From contig JAHPZI010000018.1 in assembly GCA_019058295.1 (NCBI GenBank), forward strand, positions 2,134 through 66,133: a DNA stretch of 64,000 bases, given 5' to 3'. Made by a program: the position numbers and the translations under genes. Below are positions 14,297 to 47,084 of this stretch, one piece after another. The notes under the pieces are model-generated. The model was not told where the DNA came from and searched no databases. It saw only the letters and a program-made list of their open reading frames with translations. Within the stretch, counting starts at the first letter, position 1. Each line of letters opens with the position of its first letter. This DNA is from Promethearchaeota archaeon (GTDB taxonomy: Archaea; Asgardarchaeota; Lokiarchaeia; Sigyniarchaeales; SOKP01).

Positions 14297-14893
14297 ATGG
14301 AAACCATTAAACCAATTTTAAATATAGATGAAAAAATTTTATGGAAAAGTAATCCCTCATTTTATAAATCAAAACGAGCAATATTAATTACTTATATTGT
14401 ATGTGAATTATTCTCAAGCTTCTTGTTAATTATTAGTATAATAAAAATAGATTTATTTTGGATTATATGGTCACTAATTTATATGGTTTTCTTTAATATA
14501 ATAATCTATCTAGGGCATATACTTTTAAAAAATGTTGAAAAATCTATATATTTGATTACAGACAAACGAGTTATTGAAAAATCCTCTATAGTTCGCCGAA
14601 TCGATTTTTCTAAGGCTCCAAGTAATTCTTTAAAAGTTGAAGGAGATATAGTTGCTGTTGATATTTCATCAATTAAAAGAATTATAATTAAAAGGTTTGA
14701 ATTATCTTGGAAATTTGAATTCTATATAAATTTGGAAAAAGATGTTTATTCTTGGATAACTTTTCGAGGAATTACCGAATTTTCGGAAATAAAGAAAATT
14801 TTAGCTAAATTAATCCCTTTCAGAGAAGAAAGGATAAAAAAAAGAAATAAACTTAAAAAAATTATCCTTTTAAGAGAAAATGGAACGATTTGA
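14297..14893 (+). CDS. Membrane protein, possible bacterial-PH (YdbS/DUF304-like) domain
   Basis: 198 aa. Two central TM segments followed by LITDKRVIEKS. Weak family assignment. Ends in TGA. Confidence 0.3.
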   Translation: METIKPILNIDEKILWKSNPSFYKSKRAILITYIVCELFSSFLLIISIIKIDLFWIIWSLIYMVFFNIIIYLGHILLKNVEKSIYLITDKRVIEKSSIVRRIDFSKAPSNSLKVEGDIVAVDISSIKRIIIKRFELSWKFEFYINLEKDVYSWITFRGITEFSEIKKILAKLIPFREERIKKRNKLKKIILLRENGTI

Positions 14894-20883: not shown

Positions 20884-22863
20884 ATGGTAGAAACTAAAAG
20901 CGATATTTCTAAAGATAACGAGGAAATTCGAATTTTCGTTGCTGTCTGTCAATGAGGAATTAACATTAGCGAGATTATAGACTGTACTGCTCTTGTAGAA
21001 TTCTCAAAGACGCTTCCGAATGTTGTTGAGGCCTCAGAATATATTAGTCTTTGCACAGAACCGGGCGCTGAGTTTATAAAAGAAAAAATGACTGAAAGTA
21101 ATGCAAATAGATTAATAGTAGCCTCTTGTACTCCAAAAACTCACGAACCTGTTTTTAAGAGTGTATTAGAATCAATGGATTTGGACTCCTCCTACTTAGA
21201 ATTTGTAAATATCCGTGAACATTCAAGCTTTGTACATCGTAATGATAAACCAGGAGCCCAAAAAGTAGCTGAAGACGCAATTAGGTCTGCAGTTGCCAGA
21301 GCTGCAGTTTTAGAACCTATTTTGGTAAAAGAAGTTGATATTACTAAGAAGGCCTTAATAATTGGTGGTGGAGTTGCGGGTTTAACGGCTGGAATTGATT
21401 TAGCAGAGCAAGGTTTTGAAGTCCACTTAGTTGAAAAAAACCCTACTATAGGAGGAAAAATGGCTAAATTAGATCGTACATTTCCAACAGACGATTGTAG
21501 CATATGAATTCTTGGTCCAGTAATGCTTCAGTCTGCTAGAACTCCAGGGCTCAATCTTTACACTTATAGTGAGCTAGAAGATGTAGAAGGATTTATTGGT
21601 AATTTTAAAGTAAAAATAAGAAGGAAGGCTCGATATGTTACAAATGATTGTAATGGATGTGGGGCATGCTTTGAGGTATGTCCTGCGTTTGGATATAACG
21701 AGTTTAACGAGGGAATGGATCCAAGAAAAGCTATTTATGTCTCGTTTGCTCAAGCTGTTCCATCATTAGCACAAATTGATATGGATCGCTGTATAAGATG
21801 TGAATTATGTACAAATGCATGCGAACTTGAAGCTATAGATTTTAATCAAGAAGATGAAATTATTGAGCTAGAAGTTGGTTCAATTATAGTTGCTACAGGT
21901 TGGGATGAATATATACCTGAAACCGGCTATTTAGGTTATAATATCTATCCGAATGTAATCACAGAGTTACAACTCGAAAGAATATTAGCACCGAATGGAC
22001 CGACTATAGGGCATCTTGTTAGACCATCTGATGGTAAACGACCCAAAAGAATTTTATTTATTCAATGCGTAGGATCACGGGATTTAAACAAAAATACCTA
22101 TTGTAGTGCTGGAGTCTGTTGTATGATTGCAATTAAAAATACGAAACTAATCAAACAACATTATCCAGATACAGAAATCGATGTTGCTTACATGGATATA
22201 CGGGCTGCTGGAAAAGATTACGAAGAATATTTTACAGCATCTAGAAAAGAAGGGATAAGATATATTAGAACAAACATCTCTAAATTAAAAGATGATCCTT
22301 TAACTGGTAATATTAAAGTCATAATGCAAAATACGCTAAGAGAATCGCTTGGATTAAAAGAAATGGAATATGATTTAGTTGTTTTATCTGCGTCAATGAT
22401 GCCTGCCCAAGGAATTGGAAAAATCGAAAAAATGCTAAAACTTGAAACAAGCCAAGATGGATTCTTCAAGGAGTTTCATTCGAGATTAAATCCTATTGAC
22501 ACAAAAATACCTGGTATTGCGCTTGCAGGGGTTGCTCAAGGACCTAAATCTATCGCTGAATCTATTGCACATGGGAGAGCTGCGGCTTCGTCTTTAGCTA
22601 GGTTAATGTCTAAAGATAAGTATCGTATACTCTTAATTCGAGCAACTGTTGATAAAGAAAAGTGTGCTAAATGCGGTTTATGTGAATTGAACTGCCCTTA
22701 CATGGCAATTACTATAAATGATGACGGAGCTGAAGTAAACGAGATACTATGTAGAGGATGCGGATCATGCTTAGCAAACTGTCCTTCTGAAGCTATAACC
22801 CTCAGATATTATCGAGAACCTCAATATGAAAAACAAATAGATGCAATATTAGAAGAGATTTAG
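20884..22863 (+). CDS. hdrA: Heterodisulfide reductase subunit A (FAD, multiple 4Fe-4S) with two in-frame TGA (putative selenocysteine) codons
   Basis: One reading frame joins the unlisted 5' segment (ATG 20884) with ORFs 21088..21507 and 21523..22863. TGA 20953-20955 falls in VAVCQ-U-GINIS (HdrA VCHCGxNI motif). TGA 21505-21507 falls in TFPTDDCSI-U-ILGP (HdrA DCSxCILAP motif). GGGVAGLTAG FAD site and four CxxCxxCxxxCP ferredoxin motifs. Confidence 0.85.
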
Positions 22864-22864
22864 A

Positions 22865-23350
22865 GTGGTGATAAAAATAACAATAAATAATGAGAGTAAG
22901 ATTCTGGCTTTTTTATGCTGGAAATGAGGTTATGGCGCCGGAGATATGGCTGGAACAATTCGAGCTCAATATCCTGCGACAATTAGACCTATAAGAATTA
23001 ATTGTACCGGAAGAGTAACACCTAGTTTAATCATGAGAACAATTGGAAAAGGCGCTGATGGTGTAATGATTGCTGGATGATACAAAGGTGAGTGTGATTA
23101 TGAAACCGGGAATTTAGTTGCTGAAAGAAATGTAGAATATGTAAAGAATATCTTGAAGGCAACTGGAATATCACCTGAAAGAATTCAAATGGTTCACTGT
23201 AGTGCAGCTGAAGGGCAAGTATTTCAAAATGAAGTAATTCGGATTTCAGAAATAATTGAAAATTTAGGCAGCAATCCCTTGAAAGAGTCTTTATCTTCAC
23301 ATCCTGAAGCTAAGGATTCCGAAAAAGGTAAAAAAAATAAAACCGAATAG
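22865..23350 (+). CDS. mvhD: MvhD/VhuD-like (FlpD family) 2Fe-2S electron-transfer subunit with two in-frame TGA (putative selenocysteine) codons
   Basis: Manual translation from GTG 22865 gives VVIKITINNESKILAFLCWK-U-GYGAGDMAGTIRAQYPATIRPIRINCTGRV...GADGVMIAG-U-YKGECDYETGN...RIQMVHCSAAEG. TGAs at 22925-22927 and 23078-23080 sit where the family has Cys (CNWCaY, GChpgdCHY). The start is 1 nt after the hdrA stop. Confidence 0.8.
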
Positions 23351-23450
23351 AATGAATATCCAATAAAAATTGTAGATTGGATATGACTGACCCATAGCAT
23401 GGGATTCGGAAAAAATAGCATTAATTTATATTAATTAAAATAAGTATTTT

Positions 23451-45644: not shown

Positions 45645-47084
45645 ATGAAAATTGCGCTAATTTTTCCGGTTCCGATGGACTTAAAACGAGAAGACCCTCG
45701 TCCCATGTTTTCATCATTTGCGGAACCCTTGGGACTATTATATATCGCAGGAGTCTTAATAGATGGGGGATATGATGTATCGATATTAGATCATGGTGCA
45801 ACAGATTATACATTCGATGATGTATTAAATTGGATAAAAAAACAGAATCCTGATGTCCTTGGTATTTCAGTTTTAACCCGATCTTTTCAATCGGGAATAA
45901 GAATAGCGAAATTAGCAAAAGAGTGGAACCCAAACCTAACCATAATTTTAGGTAATTATCAAACTGTCTGCGCTGAAAGGATATTACAGAAGTATAACTT
46001 CATAGATTTGTGTGTCCGTGGTGAAGGTGAATACACTATGTTAGAGCTACTACCATTGATTCAAAAAAATAACACCAACTATGAGAATATTAAAGGAATA
46101 TATTATAGAAAAAACGGAATTGTCAAATCAACTCCGCCTCGTGAACTAGAAAAAAATCTAGATAAATTCCCAATTCCCAATCGTACATTAATTGAAGGAG
46201 TAAAATATAAAATGTCTATGGGAGGATTAGAGCTTTCTAAAGAGAAATCGGCAACTATTATGATGAGCCGGGGATGTCCTTATCAATGTAGATTCTGTTC
46301 AGTTAATCATGAGAGTTGGAGGCATAGATCAGCTCACAATATAATTCAAGAGCTACATCTTATGGAATCTCAAGGGTATCGAGAAATCATGATTATGGAT
46401 GATAACTTTACAATAAATCCTAAATGGGTAATTGAGATATGCAAAAATATTATGAAAGAAAAAATCGATTTAGTATTTCATTGTGAAGCTAGAATTGAAG
46501 GAACAAAAGAAATGTATGAATATATGAACAGAGCTAATGTTAAAACTATTTTTTATGGTATGGAAAGCGGTAGTCAACGAGTTTTGGATTATTACAAAAA
46601 AAATATTACCCCTGCTCAGTGTAAGTTGGCTTTAAAAAAAGCAAGAAAAGCGGGAATTGATATGTTATTCGCTTCTTTTATTGTTGGTGCCCCAATCGAA
46701 ACAATCAATGATATACAAAAAACAACAAATTTAGCTTTGAGTCTGGACATTGATTATGCGATGTTTCATGTGTTTGAAGTATTTCCAGGTATTAAAATCT
46801 GGGATGAATTAGTAGAACAAAATAAGGTTGATGAAAATAAATATTGGGAATCTGGTGTTCGAGTAGCTGAACTTCCGTTTTATAATATCAATCTTGATGT
46901 TTTAATAGAAACAATAAGAAGAACTTATAAAAAATTTTATTCATTAGCAAGACCAAAATTCATTTTCAAGCAATTTTTAAGGTCAATAAAAAGTAATTAT
47001 CGTCGTGATAAATTAAAAAATCTAGGAAAAGATTTTCATTCATCGTTAAAGATGTTGGAGTCATTAAGTGAAAAAAGATTCTGA
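45645..47084 (+). CDS. Class B (B12-binding-domain) radical SAM enzyme
   Basis: 479 aa. EPLGLLYIAGVLIDGGYDVSILD...VRGEGE, then SRGCPYQCRFCSV. Ends in TGA. Confidence 0.85.
   Translation: MKIALIFPVPMDLKREDPRPMFSSFAEPLGLLYIAGVLIDGGYDVSILDHGATDYTFDDVLNWIKKQNPDVLGISVLTRSFQSGIRIAKLAKEWNPNLTIILGNYQTVCAERILQKYNFIDLCVRGEGEYTMLELLPLIQKNNTNYENIKGIYYRKNGIVKSTPPRELEKNLDKFPIPNRTLIEGVKYKMSMGGLELSKEKSATIMMSRGCPYQCRFCSVNHESWRHRSAHNIIQELHLMESQGYREIMIMDDNFTINPKWVIEICKNIMKEKIDLVFHCEARIEGTKEMYEYMNRANVKTIFYGMESGSQRVLDYYKKNITPAQCKLALKKARKAGIDMLFASFIVGAPIETINDIQKTTNLALSLDIDYAMFHVFEVFPGIKIWDELVEQNKVDENKYWESGVRVAELPFYNINLDVLIETIRRTYKKFYSLARPKFIFKQFLRSIKSNYRRDKLKNLGKDFHSSLKMLESLSEKRF

Follow-up and report, generated by a model that had tools for sequence, protein, structure and literature searches.

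The four in-frame UGA codons of two adjacent genes in a Loki-type Asgard archaeon are almost certainly read as selenocysteine (Sec) under a single RNA signal lying past the second gene, a reading that rests on sequence comparison. We consider it very probable that the locus, found in a 64-kb window (the whole stretch of DNA analysed), is a bicistronic hdrA-vhuD operon in which one lokiSECIS serves all four codons. In the mechanism we propose, tRNA-Sec(UCA), brought by archaeal SelB/EFSec, would decode the four UGAs, and a eukaryote-like kink-turn lokiSECIS would act 274 to 2399 nt upstream and across the cistron boundary. The HdrA flavoprotein and the VhuD/MvhD [2Fe-2S] protein would jointly supply the core of an Hdr-type complex, for electron input and bifurcation. 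In HdrA, Sec would occupy the canonical site equivalent to Cys197 and a position of the N-terminal CxC motif; in VhuD, it would occupy the two positions that carry Sec in Methanococcus. These residues presumably have a redox role.

The hdrA and vhuD reading frames

The initial annotation had placed four TGA codons at conserved Cys positions of hdrA and mvhD, and all four were confirmed in position, in sequence context and at the conserved Cys columns (Table 1). The open reading frame list did split hdrA, into pieces of 139 and 446 aa, and recovered no more of mvhD than fragments of 44 and 65 aa. The homology said to continue across each TGA was borne out: translated with TGA as U, HdrA aligned end to end with 5ODC_A (residues 13-656 with 2-650, E 7e-204), and VhuD matched the whole Pfam FlpD profile (PF02662; 1-123 of 123, 143.3 bits against a gathering score of 22.3). 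The two genes lie on the same strand with vhuD downstream, separated by 1 nt (22864), and are presumably co-transcribed. The hdrA stop is TAG (22861-22863) and so fits the requirement of the published model (PMC4989117).

Table 1. Features of the hdrA-vhuD locus, in positions of the window
Feature	Position	Strand	Description
hdrA	20884..22863	+	HdrA-type flavoprotein, 659 aa, two Sec, TAG stop; translation with TGA = U
Sec codon 1 (HdrA U24)	20953..20955	+	Context AVCQ-U-GINIS; 2399 nt upstream of the SECIS
Sec codon 2 (HdrA U208)	21505..21507	+	Context DDCSI-U-ILGP; canonical HdrA Sec site
vhuD/mvhD	22865..23350	+	[2Fe-2S] delta subunit, 161 aa, two Sec, GTG start (exact start codon uncertain), TAG stop
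Sec codon 3 (VhuD U21)	22925..22927	+	Context LCWK-U-GYGAGD
Sec codon 4 (VhuD U72)	23078..23080	+	Context IAG-U-YKGECDY
Extended three-helix element around the SECIS	23338..23421	+	Covariance model R1, 78.3 bits, full length
Helix I	23343-23348 with 23404-23409	+	CCGAAU with AUUCGG; overlaps the final vhuD codons
lokiSECIS core	23352..23386	+	AUGA, 9-bp stem (AUAUCCAAU/AUUGGAUAU), 11-nt loop AAAAAUUGUAG (AAAAA), GA
3'-side hairpin	23391-23403	+	CCCAU-AGC-AUGGG

In the structural alignments, each TGA fell on a residue of known enzymes. HdrA U24 corresponded to Cys13 in the N-terminal CxC motif of HdrA from M. thermolithotrophicus (5ODC_A), and U208 to Cys197 of the same protein, the site occupied by Sec197 in M. 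maripaludis HdrA (PMC9012536, PMC13518236). VhuD U21 and U72 corresponded to the first and second non-standard residues (X) of 9sfi_K, respectively, and each to a Cys of MvhD (5odc_D). The HdrA domain set was complete relative to 5ODC_A, comprising the N-terminal Cys-rich domain, the FAD/thioredoxin-reductase-like domain, and the inserted and C-terminal 2x[4Fe-4S] ferredoxin domains; Pfam assigned residues 256-314 and 587-640 to Fer4 dicluster domains and 156-195 to FAD/NAD binding. The match to the NCBIfam HdrA2 profile (769 bits, positions 1-643 of 777) was complemented by VhuD, which matched positions 645-774 of the same profile with 134 bits (cut-off 1100). HdrA stayed under the curated NCBIfam cut-offs of the methanogen equivalog models NF041778, NF041891 and NF040770 (HdrA2), with 769 bits against 1100 for HdrA2 and 589 and 532 bits against 1400 and 1300 for the other two. 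It has the architecture and fold of HdrA but does not qualify as an equivalog of the methanogen proteins, and its identity as HdrA does not imply CoM-S-S-CoB as substrate. VhuD likewise scored under the cut-off of the NCBIfam VhuD exception model (145 vs 215 bits); with both proteins below the curated equivalog or exception cut-offs, the scores do not assign a substrate to the complex.

Decoding machinery, conservation and alternative readings

The most durable alternative, although very unlikely, is that UGA is read through without Sec, either by near-cognate insertion of Cys or Trp or by genome-wide reassignment. Reassignment was ruled out by the ordinary use of TGA as a stop, which terminates 231 of 1686 long ORFs genome-wide; the next in-frame stop past TGA-terminated ORFs lay at a median of 7 codons, the same as for TAA and TAG. 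The initial annotation had likewise argued for site-specific recoding rather than a code change, pointing to two control stops. The TGA at 14891-14893 indeed ends an ORF (14297-14893), and for 47082-47084 the confirmation extends to the identity of the codon as TGA only.

The 3.2-Mb genome assembly, 79% complete, contained four of the five components of the Sec machinery that the initial annotation had proposed to search for: tRNA-Sec, SepSecS (480 bits), EFSec/aSelB (including the aSelB_III domain) and SPS/SelD. SepSecS, aSelB and SelD were all intact, and selD had one in-frame TGA and a SECIS of its own. The tRNA-Sec(UCA), located 73 nt upstream of SepSecS, was the sole tRNA of the genome with a UCA anticodon, which argues against a near-cognate or reassigned reading, as do the intact factors and the conserved SECIS described below. 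Its acceptor stem has 9 bp, its T stem 4 bp, and its variable arm is long. It scored 44.2 bits against Rfam (below the gathering threshold of 47 bits) and adopted a canonical cloverleaf only after removal of an inferred intron of ~30 nt, with the 5' exon at C30:102581. ARAGORN detected no tRNA-Sec in the 64-kb window or, at default settings, genome-wide. A start at C30:102616, giving a 9-bp acceptor with two mismatches, was ruled out by the relatives and by the 5' exon at C30:102581. The gene for EFSec lay on the strand opposite to tRNA-Sec, a few kb upstream of it. The fifth component, PSTK, was not found in the 79%-complete assembly, where TIGR03574 gave only a 23-bit P-loop match and Pfam KTI12 none; this speaks for read-through without Sec, but PSTK was present in seven of the eight same-genus relatives searched.

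Conservation bears on a second alternative, that hdrA and vhuD are pseudogenes or are made only as fragments ending at each TGA, as the table-11 ORF list would have it. In a comparison of 30 related genomes, with counts per column taken over the orthologues covering that column, HdrA column 24 was TGA in 19 of 28 and Cys in the other nine, while TGA occupied HdrA column 208 in 29/29, VhuD column 21 in 27/27 and VhuD column 72 in 28/28. Such recurrence of TGA or Cys codons in the same columns goes well past what chance could give. Further HdrA Sec sites at 57, 82 and 604 also alternated between Sec and Cys among orthologues. The same alternation, with Cys codons only, appeared among paralogues of the genome itself: HdrA column 24 was U in four and C in two, VhuD column 21 was Cys in seven Cys-type paralogues, column 72 was Cys in the Cys-type paralogues, and Sec paralogues (on C1, C7 and C20) differed from Cys paralogues (C28, C29 and others) exactly at the Sec columns. 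The alignment with orthologues that the initial annotation had suggested thus revealed Cys/Sec exchange at precisely the predicted columns, as did the paralogues. The orthologous frames were open throughout in all 30 genomes (57-95% identity over the full length), and truncation at the TGA points, which had been named as a sign of pseudogenes, occurred in none of the orthologues.

Strong purifying selection acted past each TGA. Relative to a 92%-identical orthologue, dN/dS in HdrA was 0.037 between the two TGAs and 0.053 past the second, and the VhuD segments gave 0.05 and 0.12 (estimates from the pair L023/L025 and, in part, L023/L026). These values, spanning 0.04-0.12, together with the open frames, the exchange with Cys codons alone and a dedicated SECIS 3' of the operon, make the pseudogene or fragment reading highly improbable. 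Assembly or sequencing errors for TGC or TGT can be given virtually no credence, given TGAs at these sites in 19 to 29 independently assembled genomes, according to the site, and again in two more paralogous pairs of the same genome. The four machinery components, the Cys/Sec alternation, the selection and the normal TGA stops all upheld site-specific Sec recoding.

The SECIS element and a possible larger three-helix RNA

The lokiSECIS core started 1 nt past the vhuD TAG, folded with an MFE of -7.8 kcal/mol (z -2.5), and exhibited compensatory changes at 9/9 pairs of its stem. It agrees point for point with the published description (PMC4989117). An initial search pattern, with an AA-start loop and a GA core, missed orthologues with G-start loops or an AUGA_AA core; it was relaxed and later superseded by a covariance model (R1). 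Clean pattern matches numbered four in the 3.2-Mb genome, and the other three also followed TGA-containing reading frames. The lokiSECIS was the sole pattern match on its contig (C18) and the sole R1 match within the window.

The core was embedded in a larger element with two additional helices (Table 1). Most of 23 MFE folds computed without constraints (about 17) showed the three-helix arrangement, and R1 matched over its full length in 111 of the order's 121 genomes, where the element recurred 3' of hdrA-vhuD, selD, a [NiFe]-hydrogenase gene and small ORFs. Both extra helices displayed double changes at all 4+4 pairs and were paired in 94% and 88% of cases. Comparison of the longest lower helix with shuffled sequences (mean 6.1 vs 5.2 bp) was uninformative in such AT-rich sequence, and the evidence for the lower helix therefore lies in its position-specific compensatory changes. 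RNAalifold applied to a MAFFT alignment (A1), whose 3' part was misaligned, returned the main stem and only three pairs of the second hairpin.

From these covariation patterns, we put forward tentatively, as a doubtful rather than a favoured proposal, that the recoding signal may exceed the published 35-nt lokiSECIS hairpin and comprise an ~84-nt three-helix RNA with functional extra helices. The lower helix would then close a junction from which two hairpins branch, one with the kink-turn and a small one with a GCA-type loop, and the extra helices could, for example, offer a platform for a SECIS-binding factor or for long-range action across cistrons. If they are functional parts of the Loki SECIS, they are absent from published models. 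A term search of the text of Mariotti et al. (PMC4989117) came upon neither of the two extra helices, the lower one or the hairpin on the 3' side. The 2024 model (PMC11227280) draws the lower stem and internal loop in generic form and reports no strongly conserved nucleotides in them, whereas here the lower helix covaries and an extra covarying hairpin lies within the 3' side of the internal loop. The AUGA_AA core variant reported in that study is also present here, in the paralogue on C7. If anything at this locus adds to published knowledge, it is the three-helix element.

Relation to known systems

The Sec arrangement of hdrA-vhuD is already known for the lineage. Lokiarchaeota HdrA-VhuD pairs with a shared SECIS were published by Mariotti et al. 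in 2016 (Mol Biol Evol; PMC4989117), and the Asgard selenoproteome catalogue of 2024 (ISME J; PMC11227280) lists HdrA and FrhD/MvhD/VhuD with type I eSECIS-like elements, describing hdrA and frhD(vhuD) as always neighbours under one common eSECIS-like structure and as the most abundant Asgard selenoprotein sequences. Our locus shares with the pairs of the 2016 paper the lineage, gene order, strand, very short gap, multi-Sec HdrA including the site near 200, two-Sec VhuD, and one SECIS past vhuD with AUGA, a 9-bp stem, an 11-nt A-start loop and GA. It also shares an hdrA stop that is never UGA (UAA or UAG) and the placing of EFSec relative to tRNA-Sec described above. Nothing essential differs there, and the present locus is a further instance in another genome that alters nothing in current knowledge. 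For HdrA of the lineage, the 2016 paper already records as many as four Sec, spread over five positions; two Sec in HdrA, which the initial annotation took to be more than in Methanococcales, are therefore not new. The literature cited here yielded no experimental Sec insertion in any Asgard archaeon.

The initial annotation had drawn its parallel from Methanococcales; the host is a Loki-type Asgard archaeon (Promethearchaeota) and no methanogen. The proteins do share full-length folds (E 7e-204 and 3e-32) with M. maripaludis Hdr-Vhu (9sfi; Nature 2026, PMC13518236) and the crystal structure of M. thermolithotrophicus MvhAGD-HdrABC (5ODC), and in the former U208 equals Sec197 and both VhuD Sec equal the two X of 9sfi_K. 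However, methanogen HdrA has a single Sec and a euryarchaeal GAA_A-type SECIS, whereas the Loki HdrA has a second Sec (U24) and a kink-turn SECIS. In methanogens, the neighbours of these genes encode hydrogenase and HdrBC, and the function served is the reduction of CoM-S-S-CoB; the Loki locus has no methanogenesis context, and no hdrBC or mvhAG gene was found within about 6 kb on either side, in line with the initial annotation, which saw none nearby. The description as a stand-alone HdrA-MvhD module holds for this neighbourhood, and such a setting is what has been published as normal for HdrA-VhuD pairs of Loki archaea. HdrB-like genes and a Sec-type [NiFe] hydrogenase occur elsewhere in the genome. 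Methanosarcina HdrA2, a fused HdrA-MvhD (NF040770), was the best NCBIfam model for both Loki proteins; it is a fusion with Cys, in contrast to the two Loki genes with Sec (769 and 134 bits, both under the cut-off of 1100).

Standard gene callers fragment hdrA and vhuD, so that Asgard genomes seem to lack the two proteins or to encode decayed versions of them; once UGA is taken as Sec, HdrA and VhuD are both whole. Action of one 3' SECIS over a distance of 2.4 kb and beyond its own cistron, which this locus illustrates, is unusual in the tree of life but was reported for the lineage in 2016. To complete its N-terminal [4Fe-4S] cluster, HdrA borrows Cys197, the canonical Sec site, from the partner HdrA, and cryo-EM in 2026 revealed a Cys-Sec197 selenylsulfide-like link at this cluster (PMC13518236); Loki enzymes with several Sec around the cluster could therefore inform the question of that link. 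HdrA U24 sits in the N-terminal Cys-rich domain.

Predicted selenocysteine codons in hdrA and vhuD

Under translation table 11, the locus is broken into 139-aa and 446-aa ORFs in one frame, followed downstream by 44-aa and 65-aa pieces, and reading TGA as selenocysteine (U) restores two complete genes (see table below). The initial annotation had placed four in-frame TGAs at conserved Cys positions of hdrA and mvhD; all four were recovered at those positions and in those contexts, with full-length homology across them. HdrA carries an FAD/NAD-binding domain and two Fer4 dicluster domains, matches NCBIfam HdrA2 with 769 bits over profile positions 1-643, and aligns from residue 13 to residue 656 with the HdrA of solved structure 5ODC_A (E 7e-204); there the counterpart of U24 is Cys13 (VCHCG motif) and that of U208 is Cys197 (DCSICIL). 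VhuD is a complete FlpD/MvhD domain (143 bits) that also matches the VhuD model, and its U21 and U72 columns hold two non-standard residues (X) in the solved VhuD chain 9sfi_K and Cys in MvhD 5odc_D. In the crystal structure, Cys197 completes the N-terminal [4Fe-4S] cluster of the partner HdrA (PMC9012536), and a 2026 cryo-EM study described a selenylsulfide-like link from a Cys to Sec197 (PMC13518236).

A six-frame search of 40 relatives revealed HdrA matches in nearly all genomes, with 1-5 internal TGAs and no other internal stops. Among the 30 best loci, 19 have U and 9 have Cys at HdrA column 24, and all 29 that extend over column 208 have U there; columns 57, 82 and 604 also alternate between U and Cys. 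VhuD columns 21 and 72 are U in every covering orthologue. The same genome encodes two more complete Sec-type pairs (contigs C1 and C7) and a Sec-type HdrA fragment at the end of contig C20. The C1 pair carries U at the same four positions. The hdrA paralogue at C7:36053-38547 has five in-frame TGAs (columns 24, 57, 82, 208 and 309, the last within an inserted ferredoxin domain), one above the maximum quoted in Mariotti 2016; it is followed by a vhuD with two TGAs and a SECIS with an AUGA_AA core, the UGA of which doubles as the vhuD stop codon. In the Cys-type paralogues of HdrA and MvhD, precisely the Sec columns hold Cys; Cys/Sec alternation is seen both among orthologues and within the genome.

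Relative to a 92%-identical orthologue, HdrA has a dN/dS of 0.037 in the stretch from its first TGA to its second and of 0.053 beyond the second; for VhuD the values are 0.05 and 0.12 in the segments after each TGA. TGA terminates 231 of 1686 long ORFs genome-wide, with a median of 7 codons to the next in-frame stop, like TAA and TAG, which bears out the earlier view that it is an ordinary stop elsewhere and that the code is unchanged. Orthologues, paralogues, selection and TGA use elsewhere all favour site-specific Sec recoding, and on this comparative evidence the four TGAs are predicted to be recoded; for practical purposes, the same evidence rules out pseudogenes, assembly error or a changed code as explanations.

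Coordinates and properties of the features
Feature	Position	Strand	Description
hdrA	20884-22863	+	one 659-aa protein with TGA read as U; stop TAG
HdrA U24	20953-20955	+	in-frame TGA, VAVCQ-U-GINIS
HdrA U208	21505-21507	+	in-frame TGA, DDCSI-U-ILGP
vhuD	22865-23350	+	161-aa protein with TGA read as U; stop TAG
VhuD U21	22925-22927	+	in-frame TGA, LCWK-U-GYGAGD
VhuD U72	23078-23080	+	in-frame TGA, IAG-U-YKGECDY
Three-helix RNA	23338-23421	+	lokiSECIS hairpin embedded within
Helix I	23343-23348 with 23404-23409	+	CCGAAU/AUUCGG; closes whole element, overlaps last vhuD codons
lokiSECIS	23352-23386	+	AUGA-AUAUCCAAU-AAAAAUUGUAG-AUUGGAUAU-GA, 1 nt past vhuD TAG
Helix III	23391-23403	+	hairpin CCCAU-AGC-AUGGG, downstream of core, common to orthologous loci
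tRNA-Sec (locus L106)	C30:102581-102703		true 5' exon GGCCCTTGACGGTCGG at C30:102581
SepSecS	C30:102776-104077		480 bits, above cut-off; Pfam SepSecS 386 bits

Published counterparts and gene neighbourhood

The hdrA-vhuD finding is real and its initial interpretation is correct; the arrangement is already published. The text of Mariotti et al. 2016 (PMC4989117) describes HdrA with as many as four Sec, spread over five positions, VhuD with two Sec, and tandem syntenic HdrA-VhuD pairs separated by very short gaps; each pair has a single SECIS, located downstream of vhuD, which serves up to six UGAs over ~2 kb. The element downstream of vhuD here is exactly the "lokiSECIS" of that study, and hdrA ends in TAG, as the published Loki model requires. 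According to its text, the 2024 Asgard catalogue (PMC11227280) comprises 1439 selenoprotein sequences, with HdrA and FrhD/VhuD the most abundant, always adjacent and with one eSECIS-like element in common. The remark that two Sec in HdrA exceed the familiar number is therefore true of methanogens and not of the Loki lineage (Mariotti et al. 2016; 2024 catalogue).

The assembly (3.2 Mb, 30 contigs, ~31% G+C, 79% completeness; the window lies on C18) has its closest public VhuD-encoding loci in "Promethearchaeota archaeon" and "Promethearchaeia" MAGs, the best being 98% identical. The former is the current NCBI name of the Asgard phylum, and the latter presumably that of the Loki-type class. A Roadblock/LC7 gene adjoins the SelB gene, which fits an Asgard, Loki-type placement. 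As first noted, no hdrBC or mvhAG was found within ~6 kb of hdrA-vhuD; the neighbours include genes for OMP decarboxylase, a small membrane protein, a SNAP-like repeat protein and AMP phosphorylase, as well as small Cys-motif ORFs with no Pfam match. HdrB-like genes occur at four other loci of the genome. At C5:1-3000, the gene of a [NiFe]-hydrogenase large subunit whose C-terminus bears the motif FDC-U-LSCAAH is followed by a SECIS of its own; it adjoins an HdrB-like gene at the contig end, and this locus is likely a partner module of the Sec HdrA-VhuD pairs.

Selenocysteine machinery

A search for the Sec machinery yielded tRNA-Sec, SelB, SepSecS and SelD, but PSTK (TIGR03574, Pfam KTI12) was not found in the 79%-complete assembly. 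Of 8 same-genus relatives searched, 7 have a ~150-bit PSTK match, so its absence here is likely an assembly gap. Archaeal SelB with an aSelB_III domain lies ~3 kb upstream of SepSecS on the opposite strand, a relative arrangement also published for Lokiarchaeum, and selD has one in-frame TGA (KIFG-U-SCKLG) and its own SECIS. The tRNA-Sec gene was missed by ARAGORN at default settings and scored 44.2 bits with Rfam, just under the 47-bit threshold, because its D-arm is interrupted by an intron-like segment of ~30 nt, recognized by comparison with relatives. After in silico excision of 29-31 nt, ARAGORN called tRNA-SeC(tca) at default settings, and the product is canonical: on inspection it has an acceptor stem of 9 bp, a T stem of 4 bp, a long variable arm and G as its discriminator base. 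In several same-genus or same-family relatives (among L109-L118), the sequence of the gene departs sharply after GGAGTTCGAT in the T-loop and once more upstream of AACGATAAG, a pattern suggestive of either a second intron or a split tRNA-Sec gene.

The SECIS and its three-helix extension

The lokiSECIS has a perfect 9-bp stem and an 11-nt loop opening with five A's, flanked by an AUGA...GA kink-turn core, and lies downstream of all four UGAs at distances of 2399, 1847, 427 and 274 nt. The genome contains four clean matches to the 9-bp/11-nt pattern, all of which follow a reading frame that contains TGA, and compensatory changes occur across relatives at 9/9 stem pairs. A lokiSECIS-like element also occurs at C8:18003-18037 (locus L070; 38.7 bits with R1, the covariance model of the extended element) after a small ORF that reads ...DLQPDPGC-U-U-EQVRKR..., stays open for another 38 codons and takes the UGA of the AUGA motif as its stop. 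Genes resembling ArsM methyltransferase and ACR3 (named by eye from sequence) lie upstream of this ORF, which may encode a C-U-U selenoprotein.

The SECIS stem (helix II) is embedded in a larger conserved structure with helices I and III. Unconstrained MFE folding of 23 sequences returned the three-helix shape for most of them (about 17). An 83-position covariance model matched over its full length in 111 of 121 genomes from the order, with 2 to 11 hits in each matching genome in the main family. Six matches lie in this genome: one after each of the three hdrA-vhuD pairs, one after selD, one after the hydrogenase gene and one after a tiny C14 ORF. In an alignment of 50 distinct sequences fitted to the model, double changes affect 17/17 pairs, helices I, II and III are paired at 94%, 92% and 88%, and the observed covariation score was reached by no shuffle. 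Term searches in the text of PMC4989117 and PMC11227280 turned up no such hairpin, and as far as that text goes the three-helix element slightly extends the published description. The VhuD C-terminal peptide …KNKTE* (codons AAA ACC GAA TAG; window 23330-23350) is unusually conserved among orthologues in which the preceding tail varies; this conservation is probably explained by these bases forming the 5' strand of helix I.

The tiny ORF on C14 has a hydrophobic, apparently membrane-anchoring N-terminus and reads ...SGGGG-U-GCVNFKQ..., with the full-length three-helix match (C14:93973-94056; 63 bits) 27 nt past it, and is a candidate small selenoprotein.
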